Shown here in pieces: positions 6,478 to 48,399 of a stretch of 64,000 bases of DNA. A program made the translations under genes and the position numbers. Below the pieces are notes generated by a model, which was not told the DNA's origin, searched no databases, and was given only the letters and a program-made list of their open reading frames with translations. How positions within the stretch are numbered: the stretch's first letter is position 1; each line of letters starts with the position of its first letter. Origin of the DNA: a bacterium (GTDB taxonomy: Bacteria > Bacteroidota > Ignavibacteria > Kapaibacteriales > UBA2268); the NCBI GenBank assembly GCA_043804925.1, contig JAZDIP010000047.1:14987-78986 (forward strand). Reading direction: 5' to 3'.

Positions 6478-6780
6478 CATCAGCGAAATCCAATAATCAG
6501 TGAAAATCTGCGATTCTGACAAATTATCCCAGCGGGATTTTATATCAGTAACCATGAAATATATAAAGCAGTTCTTATCCCGAAGGAATTATATATTAAA
6601 AAAAATACTCAATAAATATGTAATCCCTGACGGGATAAAAATCATTTGGCTTTCCGATTGTTACTGATATTTAATCCCTCTGGGATTAAGAAAAAAATCA
6701 GCGAAATCATTTTAATCAGATTCAATCAGTGGTTCTGACAACGGATAACTGATAACGGATTTAAAATAAAATCAAAATAA
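6478..6780. repeat. repeat-rich noncoding region with partially duplicated modules and atccc-N3/4-gggat mini-hairpins
   Basis: atcagcgaaatc...aatcag...ttctgacaa occurs twice (~6478-6540 and ~6694-6745). Three mini-hairpins are present: atcccagcgggat, atccctgacgggat, atccctctgggat. Heptamer-like ggataac units lie at 6735-6762. Confidence 0.5.
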
Positions 6781-7262
6781 AATAAATTACATTTCGCATC
6801 AATCTTGTAATTTCGTCCAGCTTGTTCTTTGTCAATTAATCTCGGTGCTAAATTGAATCACAGTCAATAAAACGTTTCGCGTTTCACGTTTTCGCCTTTA
6901 TACTATTTCACGAAAATTCAGAGTTCAGACTTTGGACTTCGGACTTCTGATTTATGTTTTTTACTTTTTTAAAAACTACGCAAAATGCGACAAATTCAAT
7001 TTTTACCGAACCAACTACTTGAAAACAGTTGATTTAACACAACTCATTTTTGTCCAGAGCATCACTGGAAGAACCGACACCGGCGACAAAACAAAAAACT
7101 CAAAATTACGGTGAAATTGGTGAAATATTCATTTTTCATCTTTATAACCCTTAGAAAAATCCATACATTACATAATCGCTATTTTGCACCGACCCTTTTT
7201 TGTTTAACCGGATTTTGCTATTTTACAATATTCGTATTGGGCAATTAGTAATTTGTTGAATT

Positions 7263-9416: not shown

Positions 9417-9448
9417 AAAAAACACATAATCAATTTGGGATTGAAGAA

Positions 9449-9642
9449 TTTTCAATTTTTCAATTTTCAATCAATTTTTTCAATTATCAATTGGCAATTA
9501 TCAATTCTTTCCGTCCTTCGGTCCTTTCGCCTTCAGACTTTCCGTCCTTCAGACTTTCCGTCCTTCGGTCTTTCCGTCCTTCGGTCTTTCCGTGTTTCCG
9601 TCCTTCAGACTTCAGTCTTCTGACTTCAGACTTCTATTCTTC
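9449..9642. repeat. mosaic heptanucleotide tandem-repeat tract (ttcaatt / tccgtcc / gacttca unit blocks)
   Basis: About 27 consecutive period-7 units lie in the convergent intergenic space between 7263..9416 and 9652..11472. Spurious ORFs 9413..9646 and 9435..9623 are artefacts of this tract. Confidence 0.7.
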
Positions 9643-9651
9643 GTAAGACTC

Positions 9652-11472
9652 TTATTTTGCCGGAGCAGGAAGCTCCAACTCGATTGTCCAGCGGGCAGGT
9701 ACCTCCTTTTCTTCCTTTATTAAAATAAATGGTTCTGAATGCTCGAAAGGATATGCTTCGCCGTAGCTGTATTTTCCATTTCCATCAAAATCATAGTATA
9801 ATTCAAATTTATACTTACCTTCGGGCAATGACGGAATACTCCATTTTCCTGAATCTGCGGGAGATGTAACCATTTTGAAATTCGGATTGAATATTATTAT
9901 TTTCAAATTTGAATCCGGCTGATGCAAATCTTTGATTCTCCCTTTAATTCCGCCAAAATTCCTTGTATCCTGAATCCTGAATTTCAATCTTAATGTAGTA
10001 TCCTTGCCTTTAATTTCATTAGCAGCTTCAATCTCATTCATTCTGAAATTGATGATATACCATTTTAACGGTTCCAATTTATTTTTCGGTATGATTCTCA
10101 TTATATTATCAGACTTCCAATTAACATCAAAATTAATTTTTACCGAATCTCCATCCATGAAACTAATCGAATTATTTATATCGGATTTACTTAGTGGCAA
10201 GTTAAAAACAAAATTCAAATCAGGAATAACAGGAACATATAAAGAACTATCAGGATAAGGCATTTTCAATAATTCCGGCTGAATCTGATTTGGCGAGTTT
10301 TCAGCATAAAAATAAGCAAAGTTTGCTGTGTCGTTAATTAAATTTCCAACAGTATCTCTCAGTGAAAAATCCTTTTTTGGTATAGCCAAAATCTTCCATA
10401 ATATATTCGTATCGAGTTGTTCGGAACTGAACACCCAAATCTTATCAGGAGATTTTAAACTTAGCATTGCTCCCGAAACATCTGCTTTTTCTATGCCTGT
10501 ACTGTCCCATATCTCAAGAGCTTGTGATTTAACGAAATTTGTATCTAACCGCTCACTGAAGACTAATTCAATCAAATTCGAGTTTAATCCTTCTGCTGAA
10601 AAAAGCTGTGGTCCTGTATTATCTTTAGTAGGTCCTATTTTCAAATTCACAACAGGAACGGAATCCCCGGTTACTTCCACATCGAAAGGCGCCGCTCCAA
10701 AATCATCGAGACCTTCGTCATAAACTTCGTCTTTGAATTTATCCCTTATAGCAATTACTCTGTATTTACCTTCTTTCAAAGCTACCAAATCGAATTTTCC
10801 GTTTTGTCCCGACTGTGTTCTGTAGTTTGGTTTTGTTTGGGATGGATTTAAAGTATCGGGATTTATATTGTCAATCCTGTAAGCATATATATTTGTTCCT
10901 GTCGGTTTTGGGTCAATCAATGTTCCGGTTATCGAACAGCTATCCAAAAAAGAACCTGTCGAAAAAATAAGAGAAAATGATTCTGCCGGTTTGTTTCCTT
11001 TTAAATCGGAATACTCGGTACCCAAAGAAAAAACATAAGTAGTACTATCCTTCAACTCTTCTTCGAATTCAATTTCAAGTTCTTTACCACTCCAATCGAA
11101 TTTCATCTTAACTGATGGTGAAATAAAAATGTTTTCAAGAACTGTGTTTTTATTCATATATTTATTGAATTCAATCGTAATGCTTTTCTCTTTGTAATTA
11201 GTTGTCCCCTGAGCAGGTGCATATCTTGTAATAATCGGTGGTGATTTATCCGGTGGTCCACCCGAAGGCGGCTGGGGATTTGCACAAGAAAAAAGTAAAA
11301 CAGCAAACAGCAAACAAAATTTAATTGATAATTGATAATTGATAATTGATAATGAAGACTGACGACTAACGACTGACAACTGTCGACTGTTGACTATCGA
11401 CCGGCGACTAACGACTGACGACTGACGACTAACGACCAACGACCGGCGACTGTTGACTAATTTATATTTCAT
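9652..11472 (-). CDS. Ig-like-domain (SbsA/Big-like) lipoprotein; N-terminal 56 codons encoded by a heptamer repeat tract
   Basis: 606 aa. Lipobox LLFSC at about residue 64. All residues before it (VVSRQSSVVSRRSIVNSRQLS...IINYQLS) are translated from the repeat tract 11301-11458, so the true start may lie further downstream (non-ATG). Confidence 0.5.
   Translation of the reverse strand: MKYKLVNSRRSLVVSRQSSVVSRRSIVNSRQLSVVSRQSSLSIINYQLSIKFCLLFAVLLFSCANPQPPSGGPPDKSPPIITRYAPAQGTTNYKEKSITIEFNKYMNKNTVLENIFISPSVKMKFDWSGKELEIEFEEELKDSTTYVFSLGTEYSDLKGNKPAESFSLIFSTGSFLDSCSITGTLIDPKPTGTNIYAYRIDNINPDTLNPSQTKPNYRTQSGQNGKFDLVALKEGKYRVIAIRDKFKDEVYDEGLDDFGAAPFDVEVTGDSVPVVNLKIGPTKDNTGPQLFSAEGLNSNLIELVFSERLDTNFVKSQALEIWDSTGIEKADVSGAMLSLKSPDKIWVFSSEQLDTNILWKILAIPKKDFSLRDTVGNLINDTANFAYFYAENSPNQIQPELLKMPYPDSSLYVPVIPDLNFVFNLPLSKSDINNSISFMDGDSVKINFDVNWKSDNIMRIIPKNKLEPLKWYIINFRMNEIEAANEIKGKDTTLRLKFRIQDTRNFGGIKGRIKDLHQPDSNLKIIIFNPNFKMVTSPADSGKWSIPSLPEGKYKFELYYDFDGNGKYSYGEAYPFEHSEPFILIKEEKEVPARWTIELELPAPAK
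11301..11458. repeat. mosaic heptanucleotide tandem-repeat tract (cagcaaa x2, taattga x4, gactgac-like x~14)
   Basis: About 22 period-7 units (~158 bp) that stay in frame with the downstream lipoprotein signal peptide. Confidence 0.7.
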
Positions 11473-18084: not shown

Positions 18085-19131
18085 ATGTATATTGGCATTG
18101 ATATAGGAGGAACAAATATTAAATCGGGTGTTGTTGACTCATCCGGTAATATTCTATTGGGCAATTCATTTAAAACAGGTACCAGTGAAGGTCCAACTGC
18201 GAATTTGATGCAAATAAAAAAATCAATATTTGAAATGATAAATAAATTTCCCTCAATCCAATCAATCGGTATCGGTGTACCTGGCATTATTGATAAATCC
18301 GGTGTTTTGAACGTTTCACCAAATCTTCCTGAATGGCACGGAATTAATATTCACGACGAACTAAAAAAAGATTTCAATTTGACAATTGCTGTTGATAATG
18401 ATGCAAATGCGGCGGCTATTGCGGAAATGGAAACCGGTGCGGGAAAAGATACCGAGAATTTTATTTATATTACTTTAGGAACAGGAATTGGCGGGGCATT
18501 AATAATCAATAAAAAAATATACAGAGGTTGTGAAGGCGGTGCAGGTGAAATTGGACACACAATCATTAATTATGATTTGATACGAAAGGGAATACCAACA
18601 TTCCGTCAGGGTATATTAGAAGAATTGGCAGGAAGAAAAGCAATAATTACTTATTACCAATTACTAATGACTAATGATAATTTTAGCAGTCAGCAGACAG
18701 CAGACGGCAAGCTGGATTTAATTACGAATTACAAATTACGAATTACGAATTACAAATTACGAATTACGAATGAAGACCTGGATTCCCAAAATGATATTTT
18801 AGGAATTGATTCTTTAGATGTTGAGGATATTGCTAATTCGGCAAAATCAGGTTTTCAACCTGCTGTTGATTGTCTGAACGAAACAGGAGAAATTATTGGT
18901 ATTGGTTTGGCATCTGCTATGAATCTGCTTGATATCCCTGTTGCCATAATCGGTGGAGGTATTTCACAATCAGGTAAAATACTGTTTGATTCCATACGAA
19001 AAACAATAAGGGAACGTTCTTTACCGACTATATCTGAAAGATTTGAGATAAGAGAAGCATATTTTAAAAATAATACCGGTATCATTGGTGCAGCTATGCT
19101 GGGTGCAAATAAAATGAGGGAACAATCTTGA
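18085..19131 (+). CDS. ROK-family sugar kinase (glucokinase-like) carrying an in-frame ~40 aa low-complexity insertion
   Basis: The N-terminus MYIGIDIGGTNIKSGVV and the GGGIS ROK motifs are present. Residues ~190-230 (LLMTNDNFSSQQTADGKLDLITNYKLRITNYKLRITNED) are encoded by the heptamer tract 18654-18776. Confidence 0.8.
   Translation: MYIGIDIGGTNIKSGVVDSSGNILLGNSFKTGTSEGPTANLMQIKKSIFEMINKFPSIQSIGIGVPGIIDKSGVLNVSPNLPEWHGINIHDELKKDFNLTIAVDNDANAAAIAEMETGAGKDTENFIYITLGTGIGGALIINKKIYRGCEGGAGEIGHTIINYDLIRKGIPTFRQGILEELAGRKAIITYYQLLMTNDNFSSQQTADGKLDLITNYKLRITNYKLRITNEDLDSQNDILGIDSLDVEDIANSAKSGFQPAVDCLNETGEIIGIGLASAMNLLDIPVAIIGGGISQSGKILFDSIRKTIRERSLPTISERFEIREAYFKNNTGIIGAAMLGANKMREQS
18654..18776. 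repeat. mosaic heptanucleotide tandem-repeat tract (ttactaa / gacagca / attacga units) inside ROK CDS
   Basis: The string attacga attacaa attacga attacga attacaa attacga attacga is period-7. The whole tract stays in frame. Confidence 0.7.
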
Positions 19132-19838
19132 TGAAGTTACTATCCAACATATTGATTTTATTAATGGCATTAATTACTAATTACCAATTACTAATTACTA
19201 ATGATTTTGAAGTTACTGATAACAGACAACGGATAACGGATAACCAATTCACTATTCACAATTCACAATTCATAATTAAAGATAACGCTAACTCTAAACT
19301 CTCATCTCTCAACTCTCAACTTTTTGCTCAAGTTGATAGTACCGAGATTGATGAAACTATCGCTGATACTGTTCAGTTGAAACCTTTGGATGACTTTGTT
19401 GCTGAAGTCCCGATTTCAAAAAAGTCATTTGAAATGGCAAAATCACCTACAAAAGCCGTATTATTTTCATTGCTTTTACCCGGACTTGGTCAGTATTATG
19501 TGGAGTCTTATTGGAAAATTCCCGTATTTGTAGGTGGTACCGGTGTTTTAACATATTTGATTATTGACAATCATAATAATTTCATTGCGGAGCAAGAAAA
19601 ATGGGAGAAAATGGATGACAATGACCCTAACAAGAGCCGTTCAAAAGTTATAAAAGAGTTTTACCGGGACCAGAGGGACCAGGATATTTTCTATCTTTCC
19701 GGTGTTTATATTTTAGCGGCAATTGATGCTTATGTCGGTGCCCATCTTTTTGATTTTAATGTATCAGATGATTTAACATTAAAGTTACAAACAGGATATA
19801 TGAATGGAGCCAGAGTTGGTTTTTCTTTGAGTTGGTAA
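19128..19838 (+). CDS. DUF5683-domain membrane protein; N-terminal ~60 aa encoded by heptamer repeat tract
   Basis: The LLPGLGQYY segment and following hydrophobic helices match DUF5683. The N-terminal ...LITNYQLLITNDFEVTDNRQRITDNQFTIHNSQFIIKDNANSKLSSLNSQLF is repeat-derived. Confidence 0.55.
   Translation: MMKLLSNILILLMALITNYQLLITNDFEVTDNRQRITDNQFTIHNSQFIIKDNANSKLSSLNSQLFAQVDSTEIDETIADTVQLKPLDDFVAEVPISKKSFEMAKSPTKAVLFSLLLPGLGQYYVESYWKIPVFVGGTGVLTYLIIDNHNNFIAEQEKWEKMDDNDPNKSRSKVIKEFYRDQRDQDIFYLSGVYILAAIDAYVGAHLFDFNVSDDLTLKLQTGYMNGARVGFSLSW
19171..19322. repeat. mosaic heptanucleotide tandem-repeat tract (ttactaa, ggataac, caattca, aactctc unit blocks)
   Basis: About 21 period-7 units. The ggataac block is related to 6735-6762. 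Confidence 0.7.
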
Positions 19839-26155: not shown

Positions 26156-26365
26156 TCGTCTAAATTGACAAGTATGAATCTGCTTAGCAAATAAAAACAA
26201 GTTCTTTAGTCCTTTAATAGCGCTAGTACAAAACGTTACTCTTACTTTGTTCCGGCAAAAAATCAATATGTCGGGATTATGGTCAAACTTTTTTGCAAGA
26301 AAACCATATTATTGCTTGTGGTAAATTTCCTGATTAACCATTTACAATTAACAATTGACCATTAA

Positions 26366-29495: not shown

Positions 29496-29570
29496 GGGCA
29501 GTTAGTTCAGCTGGTCTAGAACGCCTGCCTTACAAGCAGGAGGTCGGGGGTTCGACTCCCTCACTGCCCA
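29496..29570 (+). tRNA. tRNA-Val (anticodon TAC)
   Basis: Hand-folded cloverleaf. Acceptor GGGCAGT/ACTGCCC. Anticodon stem CCTGC/GCAGG with loop CTTACAA. T-arm GGGGGTTCGACTCCC. Confidence 0.85.
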
Positions 29571-29575
29571 CGGGT

Positions 29576-29692
29576 CTTAGAAGATAGGACATAGAAAATA
29601 GAAGATAGAAAGAAGAAAAGAAGAAATTAGATGAGGTGGAGATGTTTTTTTTGTAACTTTCTAATTTCTATGTTCTAATTTCTATTTTCTAA
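29576..29692. other. long imperfect inverted repeat (two ~36-nt arms, ~45-nt loop) filling the tRNA-Val/tRNA-Leu spacer
   Basis: ttagaagataggacatagaaaatagaagatagaaag pairs with the reverse complement of ctttctaatttctatgttctaatttctattttctaa, matching about 28 of 36 positions. Confidence 0.5.
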
Positions 29693-29696
29693 AATC

Positions 29697-29781
29697 GCAG
29701 AAGTGGCGGAACTGGTAGACGCGCTGGACTCAAAATCCAGTGGCCCTTAAAGCCGTGAGGGTTCGAGTCCCTCCTTCTGTA
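29697..29781 (+). tRNA. tRNA-Leu (anticodon CAA)
   Basis: Acceptor GCAGAAG/CTTCTGT (G1-U72). D-arm GTGGCGGAACTGGTAGAC. Anticodon stem CTGGA/TCCAG with loop CTCAAAA. Long variable arm. T-arm GAGGGTTCGAGTCCCTC. Confidence 0.85.
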
Positions 29782-29909: not shown

Positions 29910-29983
29910 GTAACATTTCAGCAAGGAATGTAAACATTTCAGCAAAAAAAAATACATTTCTACAAGGAATGTAAACATTTCAG
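29910..29983. repeat. direct repeats caaggaatgtaaacatttcag (x2, plus partial gtaacatttcag) just 3' of the tRNA pair
   Basis: Copies at 29922-29942 and 29963-29983, with a partial copy at 29910-29921. att-site-like position next to the tRNA 3' ends. Confidence 0.5.
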
Positions 29984-30030
29984 GAATAAATGTATACATT
30001 TTATATTGGATTGTATCAGAATGGTTTTAA

Positions 30031-30399
30031 CTATTGATTATCAGCATTTGATATTAATTCATTTATTGTCAAATCTATTTTATTATCTAATTCTTTAATT
30101 AATTCAGATTCTTTTAAGTATTCAGATTTAATACTAAGCTCTGATAATATACTTTTCATACGGTAAATGTATTTGGGATTATCCAAATTATTTTTATTAC
30201 ATTCAATCAGATTCATAACAAAGAAGATACCGATAATCCAGCTTTCTGATGTTTCAGGAAACTTTGCTCTTATGTAATTCAATCTGTTTCCGTTTTTGCC
30301 TTGCAAAAATTTTCCTTCAATTGGTATTCGTTCCCGGTATTGTTTTTTTCGTTGCCCCTTTCTTTGTACAGTTGCTCTTTGTTTTCTTCTGTTCCACAA
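30031..30399 (-). CDS. hypothetical protein with highly basic N-terminus (possible mobile-element remnant)
   Basis: 122 aa. The N-terminal RKQRATVQRKGQRKKQYRERIPIEGKFLQGKNGNRLNY has no confident family match. Its position next to tRNA genes and direct repeats suggests an integrase or transposase fragment. Confidence 0.3.
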   Translation of the reverse strand: MWNRRKQRATVQRKGQRKKQYRERIPIEGKFLQGKNGNRLNYIRAKFPETSESWIIGIFFVMNLIECNKNNLDNPKYIYRMKSILSELSIKSEYLKESELIKELDNKIDLTINELISNADNQ

Positions 30400-46192: not shown

Positions 46193-46233
46193 ATAAATAC
46201 TAGATGTTCCATATAAATTTAGAATATAAAAGA

Positions 46234-48399
46234 ATGAAAAAAATAGTAACAACATTAGTAATTTTATACTCTACGTTTTTTGCAAACCTCTTTTCTCAAG
46301 ATAGCTCAAATGTGCCCTGCAAAGTTTTGGGCTTCGGAAAATTACATGATATTGCTATAAGTCCCGACAGTAAGAAATTAGCTAGTGCTTCATCAGCTAT
46401 GATTGTGATATGGGATTTGGAGACTGGAGATTCACTAAAAACTCTATCTGGAAATTCAGATTATATAAGGTCCATCAGTTGGTCACCAGATAGTAAAATC
46501 CTTATTGGTGGGAGTAATAATGGGACAATATTTTTTTGGAATATTTCCAGCGGTAAAATAATCAGGACCATCAAGGCATATTCACATGGTTATGTTTGGT
46601 CTGTTAGCTGTTCACCAAAAGGGAATATTCTTGCAACCGTAAAATCGGATAAGACAATAAAAATATGGGACATTTCCAGCGGTAAAGAAATCATAACTTT
46701 AAAAGGGCATACTGATTGGATATGGTCGGTCAGTTGGTCCCCGGACGGCAAAAGACTAGCCAGTGTGAGTGCGGATAAGACAATAAAAATATGGGACATT
46801 TCCAGAGGTAAAGCAATCCGAACACTTGAAGGACATACTGATGATGTAGGATCAGTCGCATGGAGTCCTGACGGCAAAAAGTTGGCAAGCGGAAGCTTGG
46901 ATAATACAATAAAGTTATGGGATATAGAGAACGTCAAAGAACTGATGACTCTCAAAGGGTATGCTTATTCACAAAATTCTGTAAGTTGGAGTCCCGATGG
47001 CAGCAAACTGGCAAGCGGAAGTTTGGATATGACTATCAGAATATGGGATGCAACAAGCGGCAAAAAACTGAAAAAACTTGAAGGGCATACAAAAGGGATA
47101 CATTCAGTCAGTTGGAGTCCCGATGGTACAAAACTAGTAAGCGGAAGTGGAGATGGAACAATTAGGATATGGTATTTAGAACCGGAAGAAGAAAAAGAGA
47201 GAATTAAAATTCCACCGATTGCCTTGTCTTTTTCAGGAGTTTTTATTCCAATTATTGTTCGGGAGTATGAAGGTGTTCAATCAACCAACAAAAATGTTGA
47301 CACATATTTATCTCCGGAAATGATGCTAAAAGTAAATGTATATGACAGGTTCAGTTTTTGGGTAAACTACACAAAGCCATTTATTACTTCATCCTCGTCC
47401 ATTAATGAAAAGAAAATTTTTAGCGAATGGAACGGAAATGCTTTTGGCTTTGGAATTGGTTACAATATTTTCAATCCCGAAAACAGATGGGGATTAAATG
47501 CATATCTCGGCTGGCTGTATTACGATAGTAAAGCAGTATCGGAATACAACAGCCAAAAGATGAACGGTAGAACGATTTGGCGGGCTTTTTCAATTGGTGC
47601 TGAATTAACCTACAGACCAATCGAGAGCTTTCCCGGATTGCAATTAACATTCAGACCTACTTTAAATTATTCATTAAATGAAGACCTGGTATTTAATATT
47701 TCTAATAATCCAATTATTATTGGACATAGCTTAGCGAATATAAATTTAGGAGTTAGGTATACTTTTGATTTGGGATTTACTTCAGAATCAAAAGCTGAAA
47801 CTGAGGAAATTGTGAAAAGAGAAGAGATAGAAGAAGTTAATATATGCGACCAAATCTGGATGAAAAAAAATCTCGATGTTGAGCATTATCGAAACGGTGA
47901 CTCAATTCTGTATTGTGAGACGCAAGCAGAATGGAAAGAAGCATATAATAACAAAGAAGGTGCTTGGTGCTATTGTAATAACGACTCAACAAACGGGAGA
48001 ATTTACGGTAGACTTTATAATTGGTATGCAGTAAACGACTCAAGAGGACTTGCTCCCGAGGGCTGGCATGTGTCCACATTTGATGAGTGGACTGAATTAG
48101 TTAACTGTCTTGGAGGAAAAGATGTGGCTGGAGGTAAGCTAAAAGAAGCAGGAACGACTCATTGGAATAGTCCAAATACTGGAGCCACTAATGAAAGTGG
48201 TTTTACTGCTCTTCCGGGAGGTGCCTGTGCTACTAATGGCAATTCTGGAGATAATGGTATTCATGGCAATTGGTGGGTGTTAAATAAAAAATTTTCTAAT
48301 AATAAAATTTGGAGCTTTTACTTAAATTATAAATCAGTCTCTATAAAGAGTTTCGATTTTAAGGATATGGGTTTTTCTGTTCGCTGTGTAAAGGATTAA
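46234..48399 (+). CDS. WD40-repeat / beta-barrel / Fibrobacter-succinogenes-major-paralogous-domain (Fib_succ_major) fusion protein
   Basis: Signal peptide. Seven WD40 units (GH..WSVSWSPDGK.LASGS.D.TIKIWD). A central region has an alternating beta-strand pattern. The C-terminus matches TIGR02145 closely (ICDQIWMKKNLDV...GRLYNWYAV...EGWHVSTFDEWTELVNCLGG...ESGFTALPGG...GFSVRCVKD). Confidence 0.75.
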   Translation: MKKIVTTLVILYSTFFANLFSQDSSNVPCKVLGFGKLHDIAISPDSKKLASASSAMIVIWDLETGDSLKTLSGNSDYIRSISWSPDSKILIGGSNNGTIFFWNISSGKIIRTIKAYSHGYVWSVSCSPKGNILATVKSDKTIKIWDISSGKEIITLKGHTDWIWSVSWSPDGKRLASVSADKTIKIWDISRGKAIRTLEGHTDDVGSVAWSPDGKKLASGSLDNTIKLWDIENVKELMTLKGYAYSQNSVSWSPDGSKLASGSLDMTIRIWDATSGKKLKKLEGHTKGIHSVSWSPDGTKLVSGSGDGTIRIWYLEPEEEKERIKIPPIALSFSGVFIPIIVREYEGVQSTNKNVDTYLSPEMMLKVNVYDRFSFWVNYTKPFITSSSSINEKKIFSEWNGNAFGFGIGYNIFNPENRWGLNAYLGWLYYDSKAVSEYNSQKMNGRTIWRAFSIGAELTYRPIESFPGLQLTFRPTLNYSLNEDLVFNISNNPIIIGHSLANINLGVRYTFDLGFTSESKAETEEIVKREEIEEVNICDQIWMKKNLDVEHYRNGDSILYCETQAEWKEAYNNKEGAWCYCNNDSTNGRIYGRLYNWYAVNDSRGLAPEGWHVSTFDEWTELVNCLGGKDVAGGKLKEAGTTHWNSPNTGATNESGFTALPGGACATNGNSGDNGIHGNWWVLNKKFSNNKIWSFYLNYKSVSIKSFDFKDMGFSVRCVKD

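Follow-up and report, generated by a model that had tools for sequence, protein, structure and literature searches.

Background

The short tandemly repeated repetitive (STRR) heptanucleotides of heterocystous cyanobacteria were reportedly described by Mazel and colleagues in 1990 as intergenic, while the cyanobacterial small dispersed repeats (SDR) are said, after the work of Elhai and colleagues in 2008, to be defined sequences of 21-27 nt which have the potential to form hairpins and which insert as units; to our knowledge, neither in-frame genic copies nor a conserved block order have been described for STRR. Here we analyse heptamer arrays in a 64,000-nucleotide stretch (the window: assembly GCA_043804925.1, contig JAZDIP010000047.1, positions 14,987 to 78,986) of an Ignavibacteriota-like metagenome-assembled genome (MAG), in particular the arrays which lie in frame within a ROK-family sugar kinase gene and the adjacent DUF5683 gene, and which were the subject of an original prediction made from the sequence alone. 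Related direct repeats with the unit TAACTGA have been described in Beggiatoaceae, cyanobacteria and five Bacteroidetes (MacGregor 2015, PMC4679880), where they are mostly intergenic and sometimes located beside other heptamer repeats; occasional copies within open reading frames (ORFs) are found "at the periphery" of proteins, their stop codon content limits the orientation, and the mechanism is not known. In the summary of Mrazek et al. 2007 given in the same paper, heptamers are the most abundant class of long simple sequence repeats (LSSR), possibly resulting from polymerase slippage. Xanthomonas GGGAATC repeats prefer four units, which was attributed to G-quadruplexes (Rehm et al. 2015, PMC4692102), and regulatory roles have been proposed for heptamer repeats near start codons in Nostoc (bioRxiv 10.1101/2022.06.06.494920).

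The arrays in the window belong to this known kind of repeat: tandem 7-nt units at many loci, of mixed types, with units found across phyla and with variation of the same locus between related genomes. They resemble the TAACTGA-type repeats in their few copies per locus, mostly intergenic location, adjacent heptamer types and patchy distribution across phyla, as well as in the occasional copy within an ORF, where the stop content dictates the usable strand and frame. They differ from them in their main units (AATTAC[N], AGCAGAC, GATAACG, AATTCAC and AACTCTC), in forming multi-block composites with a block order conserved between orthologous loci, in having one array in the middle of the gene of a conserved enzyme rather than at a protein periphery, in their stop-removing variant units and in their host. 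As with STRR, families of different tandem heptamers are dispersed in one genome, but the phylum and the units are different. The heptameric LSSR and the Xanthomonas repeats have in common with the arrays described here that heptamers are an over-represented class of simple repeats, that slippage is proposed, that length and sequence vary at the same locus between related genomes, and that about four units are preferred, although the AT-rich units found here cannot form the G-quadruplexes invoked for GGGAATC. SDR are likewise very short repeats associated with heptamer arrays, and can occur in genes without destroying them, whereas the ROK insert contains no fixed element. New here are the host lineage, the multi-block arrays with conserved order, the mid-gene copy in an enzyme, the stop-removing units and the apparent copying between neighbouring arrays. 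We consider it likely that these tracts represent composite arrays of heptanucleotide tandem repeats of the STRR, LSSR and TAACTGA kind, which arose at the DNA level and were filtered for reading frame within genes, with the ROK insert copied from or exchanged with the DUF5683 array.

Composite heptamer arrays within the ROK and DUF5683 genes

The ROK gene (18085-19131, + strand) is intact and encodes a protein of 348 aa, with a Pfam ROK match (2.3e-54) spanning residues 2-339 and all 53 invariant columns of the family alignment (A1) retained. Heptamer arrays were called with Tandem Repeats Finder (TRF), and TRF, Pfam and stop codon counts together place real in-frame heptamer tracts in the ROK, DUF5683 and DUF2723 genes, as had been predicted. 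The ROK tract had been described as a single 123-bp tract adding about 40 residues; it consists of three different blocks and two non-repeat junctions, and in comparison with the closest orthologues it has only about 108 nt (36 codons) of additional sequence. It starts with a TAATTAC-type block (T-block) of 4.6 copies (18644-18675, + strand), which encodes IITYYQLLMTN and in which the in-frame unit is CAATTAC, not TAATTAC. The T-block overlaps with the junction AATGATAATTTTAG (18674-18687, +), which is the left copy of a direct repeat bounding the extra segment and is also found behind the T-block in the DUF5683 gene of two related loci (L005 and L054); the whole sequence between the T-block and the next block reads GATAATTTT. 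This next block has 3.6 copies of AGCAGAC (18685-18709, +) and encodes SSQQTADG, and the same unit is present in an equal frame in the DUF2723 gene and in the DUF5683 array of L005 and L054. After the second junction comes an AATTACG/AATTACA block of 7.4 copies (18720-18771, +) encoding LITNYKLRITNYKLRITN, which is also a perfect 21-nt repeat of 2.5 copies (TRF period 21, 100% matches), and the pattern of which occurs nowhere else in the window. Directly behind it lies the junction AATGAAGAC (18769-18777, +), followed by the right copy of the direct repeat, AATGATATTTTAG (18791-18803, +), 117 nt from the left copy; at this point the L005 ROK gene reads AATGATGATTTTGG. The peptides encoded by the tracts include LDLITNYK and ITNEDLDSQNDILGIDSLDVEDIANSAK.

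An AlphaFold2 model of the ROK protein, built on 117 homologues, has a mean predicted local distance difference test (pLDDT) score of 90.5, and its best match in the PDB is glucokinase 2qm1, with both 2qm1 and 3vgk (ROK glucokinases) giving a query-normalised TM-score of 0.78. The residues encoded by the T-block fall in a confidently modelled helix (184-196, pLDDT 77-95), while residues 200-240 have pLDDT values of 47-54, with only a short helix (213-221) inside the region below 50. The model thus predicts that fold and conserved motifs are kept despite the insert; with low pLDDT at residues 200-240 and both the fold and the invariant columns intact, the 36-residue insert would be a disordered excursion of a surface loop which is variable in length throughout the family, matching the surface loop that structure modelling had been proposed to look for. 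One ROK homologue of the same length (P0018, 44% identity, 348 aa) has an unrelated insertion at this loop (IDGKVIDGKMIDKKVVNEKIINEIINP, with a period of about five residues and not derived from heptamers), and as judged from these sequences the loop appears to be a recurrent acceptor of repeat expansions.

The DUF5683 gene (19131-19838, ORF 19128/19131-19838, +; Pfam DUF5683 5.8e-33, residues 105-224) starts with an ATG overlapping the ROK stop codon (TGATG), and its start region ATGAAGTTA is conserved among the orthologues. Its predicted N-terminal tract is present as four blocks (19171-19321, +), starting 40 nt after the ATG. A T-block of 4.6 copies (TAATTACTAATTACCAATTACTAATTACTAAT, 19171-19202) encodes LITNYQLLITN at the end of an N-terminal hydrophobic segment, and is 100% identical in L004, L005, L006 and L054. 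It is followed by a GATAACG-type block of 3.9 copies (19218-19244), in which the second unit is GACAACG, abolishing an in-frame TAA, by an AATTCAC-type block of 4.7 copies (19245-19277, TRF unit CAATTCA) also found in L004 and L005, and by an AACTCTC-type block of 4.6 copies (19290-19321) also found in L001 and L005. The third genic tract, a CAGACAG block of 4.4 copies (CTGTCTG on the + strand; 1791-1823, TRF 1791-1821), likewise lies in frame as predicted, on the minus strand within the ORF at 537-2540 (Pfam TMEM260-like (DUF2723), 7e-35), where it encodes GSRQQTSDSRQ in a variable loop in which distant homologues are about 14 residues shorter (alignment A6).

Reading frame and stop codons

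In each genic tract the frame of the gene is free of stop codons: the other frames contain 4-6 stops in the ROK tract and 3-12 in the DUF5683 tract, the DUF2723 tract has none in the gene frame, and an array at the start of a lipoprotein ORF (see below) has none in the ORF frame and 1-8 in the others. The same is true for the N-terminal region of DUF5683 in the window, L001, L004, L005 and L054, with no stops in the gene frame and 3-23 in the others. A pure TAATTAC or GATAACG array has a TAA in every frame, and the intergenic array at 6735-6950 is closed in all six frames, with its GATAACG block retaining its stops. In the genic T-blocks the unit that would give an in-frame TAA is always altered, to CAATTAC in the window, L004, L005 and L054 or to GAATTAC in L001 and L104, and the in-frame TAA of the GATAACG block is replaced by CAA, AAA, AAA, AAT and CAA in the window, L005, L001, L004 and L054, respectively. 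As different stop-removing substitutions are present in different lineages, purifying selection seems to act on the ORF, which agrees with the suggestion of selection for frame preservation in the original prediction.

A second suggestion, that units might be inserted in triplets, did not hold up. The blocks have 3.6-7.4 units, thus neither integers nor multiples of three units, and the indels between orthologues (108 nt in ROK versus L005, and 78, 75 and 48 nt in DUF5683) are multiples of 3 and not of 7 or 21; together with the equal size of the intergenic blocks, which are closed in six frames, this leaves the triplet-insertion mechanism unsupported, and frame keeping is better read as purifying selection on these sequences. 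The sole 21-nt signature is the perfect repeat at 18720-18771, a periodicity that would be expected if only three-unit slippage survives inside an ORF.

Arrays at the orthologous loci of related genomes

We compared the syntenic loci (PGK, gcvPA, DivIC, ROK, DUF5683 and a SpoIIE-type phosphatase) of six near homologues, to which L054 was added via its DNA pattern. A scan of species-representative genomes with the ROK protein gave no relative, with L054 and L065 emerging only via the DNA pattern, and a ROK-protein scan of metagenomes gave one distant locus only (L081, 30% identity). The nearest ROK homologues are 59-66% identical and have 311-322 aa, versus 348 aa in the window. At the ROK site, heptamer units are of the AATTACG type in L001, L004 and L104, while L005 and L054 have a T-block; a multi-block array is present at the N-terminus of DUF5683 in L001, L004, L005/L006, L104 and L054. 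In the outgroup loci L102 and L103 the ROK and DUF5683 sites are both free of arrays, with only degenerate look-alikes present (IIKNYQSQVT; LIISNYHNVISDDF).

Alignment with the orthologues delimits the ROK insertion to 36 residues beyond a first block shared with the closest of them. Distant ROK proteins (<=50% identity) have a non-repetitive helix of equal length where the first block sits, and the close relative L004 retains the native helix QIIQRMQKI with its array placed behind, which means that the first ROK block replaces or follows native sequence and that the net insertion comprises the remaining 36 residues only. The prediction of an insertion thus stands for these residues, and for the first block an equivalent non-repetitive segment does exist in relatives.

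The ROK array of the window can be aligned with the DUF5683 array of L005 and L054 over the T-block, GATAATTTTAGCAG, the AGCAGAC block and GACGGNA, with 62/66 positions identical (94%; alignment A5, pairwise counts), and beyond these 66 nt the alignment runs on into an AATTAC[N] block; the coding flanks of ROK are 74% identical between the window and the L005 and L054 genomes. In the window itself, the DUF5683 gene is without exactly this segment. Copies of AATGAT bound the extra segment in both genes, and those in ROK read AATGAT(A)ATTTTAG at 18674 and 18791. Within the window, positions 18640-18678 of ROK and 19167-19205 of DUF5683 form a 39-nt stretch of 92% identity, 527 nt apart from start to start. 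The ROK insert, with its non-repeat junctions included, is therefore on sequence comparison paralogous to the DUF5683 array of the related genomes, and this paralogy, combined with the 39-nt stretch common to ROK and DUF5683, argues for copying between arrays instead of independent slippage, in line with the common generating process that had been proposed. The proposed sharing of unit types between loci is borne out by the 39-nt stretch and by GATAAC-type units at two sites (6740-6760 and 19218-19244), but not by the 9-mer AATGAAGAC on its own: although an A/T-rich block precedes it both at 11351, where this is the TAATTGA block, and at 18769, its three matches in the window compare with 0.9 expected, and 7/100 shuffles reach three. 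The 9-mer carries weight only in view of its location behind A/T-rich blocks and of a further copy in L065, which there comes after a T-block.

Orthologous loci differ by whole blocks, with the block order conserved between them. Over the portion of ROK covered by both loci, L054 and L005 have 94% identity, and their arrays differ by the replacement of a whole block (TAATTAC/CAATTAC versus ATTACGA) and the deletion of a 48-nt block; on these comparisons blocks seem to turn over quickly. The L054 DUF5683 array has two identical T-blocks with an AGCAGAC block between them, and recombination between such L054-like T-blocks would give the shorter DUF5683 form found in the window.

The contigs of L054 and L065 are labelled as 'uncultured Hyphomicrobiales bacterium' SRP319275_co4_89. 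The ROK-DUF5683 locus of L054 is a mosaic that is 94-100% identical to L005, an organism of the Fibrobacteres-Chlorobi-Bacteroidetes (FCB) group (94% before the array, 100% after), and in L065 a DHH gene contains a T-block, behind which comes TAATGAAGAC; both contigs were probably mis-binned into an alphaproteobacterial MAG.

Other heptamer arrays in the window

The window (32% G+C) contains eight composite arrays, of which four are intergenic, one is at the 5' end of a gene and three are within genes. A simple autocorrelation scan gave eight strong tracts with period 7 and none with periods 4-6 or 8-12, making the enrichment of period 7 specific and far beyond chance. By TRF the period-7 arrays are located at 1791-1821, 6740-6947 (3 blocks), 9447-9634, 11298-11452, 18644-18771 (3 blocks), 19171-19321 (4 blocks), 26333-26365 and 29578-29692. 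The arrays are made up of successive blocks, each about 32 nt long and with one heptamer type, most blocks in the window being 31-33 nt long, and block sizes are equal in intergenic and genic arrays. Arrays contain more than one heptamer type: three blocks in ROK, four in DUF5683, and at least three each at 11298-11452 and 9447-9634.

The intergenic arrays are found in varied settings. The array at 6740-6947, in a divergent promoter region, has blocks of the GATAACG/TAACTGA type (the TAACTGA unit itself occurs within the 6740-6760 block), ACGTTTC and TTCGGAC. Between the 3' ends of convergent genes, the array at 9447-9634 combines AATTTTC, AATTATC (the reverse complement of the TAATTGA unit), an 8/16-mer block and TTCAGAC; the 8/16-mer block is a single block at 9506-9606 (TTCCGTCC; TCTTTCCGTCCTTCGG x5.6) with period-7 blocks on either side. 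A 33-nt block of ATTAACA type (26333-26365) lies directly 3' of a thioredoxin gene, and blocks of TAGAAAA and TTTCTAA (29578-29692) fill almost the whole spacer between two tRNA genes (29496-29570 and 29697-29781). An Rfam scan of the window gave no RNA family over any array, the sole matches being these two tRNAs. Downstream of the tRNA pair are a 21/41-nt tandem repeat (29912-30001) and a weakly matching fragment of a DDE transposase (30031-30399).

The array at a gene 5' end (11298-11452, minus strand, TRF) consists of AAACAGC, TAATTGA x4.6, the junction ATGAAGAC and a TGACGAC-type block of 14 copies, and makes up the first ~50 ORF codons of a Big_5 lipoprotein, before the lipobox LLFSC. 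Translation of this ORF probably starts at 11472, with an alternative start at ATT-AAA possible, giving (M)KFCLLFAVLLFSC. The ~50 heptamer-coded residues are rich in Ser, Arg and Val and precede a perfect lipobox, and the gene (Big_5 / CarboxypepD_reg, 9652-11472, minus strand) is bracketed by arrays with the TAATTGA unit in inverted orientation. Elsewhere in the window, the ORF at 46204-48399 encodes WD40 beta-propeller repeats fused to a Fib_succ_major (Fibrobacter succinogenes major) domain, and its 126-nt tandem repeat (46646-46922) represents the WD40 units.

A 28-mer and a preferred block size in many phyla

The exact 28-mer TAATTACTAATTACCAATTACTAATTAC was found in 74 stretches of GTDB species-representative genomes from more than ten phyla, with groups including Patescibacteria, Chloroflexota, Bacteroidia, Ignavibacteria, Sumerlaeales, Opitutaceae, Planctomycetota, Acidobacteriota, Gammaproteobacteria (including Parabeggiatoa), cyanobacteria and a Firmicute. 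Most copies are intergenic, while about 15 are located in long ORFs, always in the sole open frame (LITNYQLLIT), with host proteins such as an O-antigen ligase (Wzy_C), an RMKL-like methyltransferase, an A24 prepilin peptidase, a PMT_2 glycosyltransferase, a class-V aminotransferase and a DHH phosphoesterase. With some 15 such copies in long ORFs, in-frame heptamer blocks inside conserved genes are widespread. Shapirobacteria proteins contain several heptamer-coded inserts apiece. The codon string for LITNYQLLITN, with its rare codons TAC and CTA, has, for the given peptide, a probability of 3e-5 under the codon usage of the window, so the identity is at the level of the DNA. When proteins were searched with the insert peptide, the sole matches were two short spurious ORFs covering AATTACG arrays, which is uninformative on prevalence.

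A preferred block size is also seen outside this lineage. Among the fetched loci, 54/215 heptamer arrays other than those of the AATTAC type fall in a length mode of 31-33 nt (about 4.5 copies), from 26 loci and many phyla (for example L009 3261-3291, L027 2187-2218, L023 2595-2626 and L010 1209-1241), versus a monotonic decay from two copies for arrays of period 6 and periods 8-12. In viral contigs the TTCT 28-mer is absent and pure TAATTAC x4 is found in 20 stretches, which gives no support to either a viral vector or the TTCT pattern as a general 'attractor'. In the GC-rich genomes of L026, L045, L046, L050 and L059 (Sumerlaeales LC101), L030 and L063 (Opitutaceae Gx485_bin97) and L073, the T-block adjoins GC-rich hairpins (e.g. 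GGAGCGCCTGCGGCGC); an array of GTAATTA type lies opposite to it in inverted orientation in L030, L063 and L073, in a layout resembling a miniature inverted-repeat transposable element (MITE) or a repetitive extragenic palindromic (REP) element.

Origin of the arrays

In the reading we prefer, arrays would arise and turn over as DNA, presumably by slipped-strand mispairing within a block and by duplications, deletions or conversions between blocks with sequence in common. They would land anywhere, chiefly between genes, and within genes only stop-free versions that keep the frame would persist, in places where the protein tolerates them, such as the variable surface loop of ROK, the region following the N-terminal hydrophobic segment of DUF5683 and the loop in DUF2723. 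For ROK, an old array common with the relatives may have replaced part of the native helix-loop; a further 108 nt, encoding 36 disordered residues, would then have been added in this lineage, copied from or exchanged with the DUF5683 array 420 bp downstream, which starts with the same block, and subsequently extended by slippage of 21 nt (three units). The in-frame ROK insert would accordingly be a tolerated passenger as judged from the model, presumably lacking a function at the protein level.

Several observations weigh against this reading. The T-block is 100% identical across genomes of which the coding flanks are 74% identical, one 28-mer is shared by more than ten phyla, and block length peaks at 31-33 nt rather than decaying, none of which is explained by neutral slippage. 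Nor was length variation, as a sign of ongoing slippage, seen among three samples of one relative (L001, L002 and L003), the arrays of which are identical, and the compared orthologues do not polarise the direction of exchange between ROK and DUF5683, nor whether the first block arose in place or was inserted. In another reading, heptamer blocks would differ from ordinary microsatellites in being quantised units of ~32 nt (4.5 repeats, about three helical turns) that are written or maintained in many phyla by a sequence-specific process, with genes such as that of the ROK kinase serving as in-frame carriers; candidate agents would be an enzyme dedicated to this task, a mini-element that is mobile, or a protein binding one heptamer per domain. 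We regard this as a minor possibility; if true, such a block-writing process would account for the cross-phylum identity of the 28-mer, the conservation above coding flanks and the conserved block order.

Regulation offers another explanation, in which the arrays are functional RNA or DNA cis-elements bound one heptamer per domain by an S1-like, cold-shock-like or other protein and tuning translation or transcription, so that genic copies, for example the two on either side of the ROK-DUF5683 junction, would have a regulatory role and need only stay translatable. Such roles were proposed in PMC4679880 and bioRxiv 10.1101/2022.06.06.494920, and would fit with conservation of the DNA above that of coding flanks, the preference for ~4.5 units across many heptamers and the arrays near gene starts, as in DUF5683 (40 nt after the ATG), the lipoprotein gene and several matches from other phyla, including L042, where an array appears to lie directly upstream of the start of a putative ribosomal-protein-S20-like ORF. 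We nevertheless consider it unlikely, as the arrays in the window have no consistent position (mid-gene, convergent 3' ends, tRNA spacer and divergent promoter region), the unit types are many and unrelated, the outgroup orthologues manage without arrays, and no binding protein is known. About equally unlikely is an origin of the arrays as copies or footprints of a tiny mobile element of the MITE or 'small dispersed repeat' type which inserts as a unit, with the ROK insert representing one insertion with its target-site duplication. The direct repeats AATGAT(A)ATTTTAG on both sides of the extra ROK segment, and the AATGAT copies around the corresponding DUF5683 segment of L005 and L054, would be consistent with this, as would the block length quantised at ~32 nt and the many 28-mer stretches across phyla, often with non-repetitive flanks and, in Sumerlaeales and Opitutaceae MAGs, adjoining GC-rich hairpins and inverted GTAATTA-type arrays. 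The supposed target duplication is, however, the standard junction behind a T-block, so that recombination between repeated junctions fits equally well; the ROK insert is not flanked by terminal inverted repeats, block content varies by locus without fixed ends and does not amount to one element, the arrays have no associated transposase (a single transposase-like fragment, at 30031-30399, is a weak match), and the 28-mer is absent from viral contigs.

Phase variation and misassembly are far less probable. As each 7-nt unit gained or lost shifts the frame, and as the carriers include two envelope proteins, DUF5683 and the Big_5 lipoprotein, the tracts could be contingency loci toggling their genes, but this is very hard to reconcile with a housekeeping kinase as carrier, with variant units that interrupt the arrays and lower slippage, with five to seven orthologues that are all in frame and no frameshifted contig seen, and with the identical arrays in three samples of one population. 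Since the window derives from a MAG and a 39-nt near-identical repeat is located 527 nt away from start to start, the ROK insert might also be an artefact of assembly across the ROK/DUF5683 repeat; this we find scarcely credible, as the insert is in frame and stop-free, within the 39-nt repeat the T-blocks of ROK and DUF5683 disagree at three positions, the AATTACG/AATTACA pattern is absent from the rest of the window, and independent assemblies of relatives have similar arrays at both sites. CRISPR (period 7 without spacers), an intein (no intein motifs) and a pseudogene (reading frame intact and motifs conserved) do not fit.

Among the long simple repeats of bacteria, heptamers are the class with the strongest over-representation. 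The seven orthologous gene pairs which lack, carry or reshuffle arrays form a natural series, showing how repeats at the DNA level invade conserved genes and are filtered by frame keeping and stop-removing units, and how they move between neighbouring arrays and provide proteins with new loop and linker sequence. For annotation, this means that low-complexity peptides such as LITNYQLLITN in enzymes are translated repeat DNA and not domains, and that intergenic heptamer repeats yield spurious ORFs. The identity of blocks across phyla, their conservation above that of coding flanks and their quantisation at 32 nt merit a genome-wide study.

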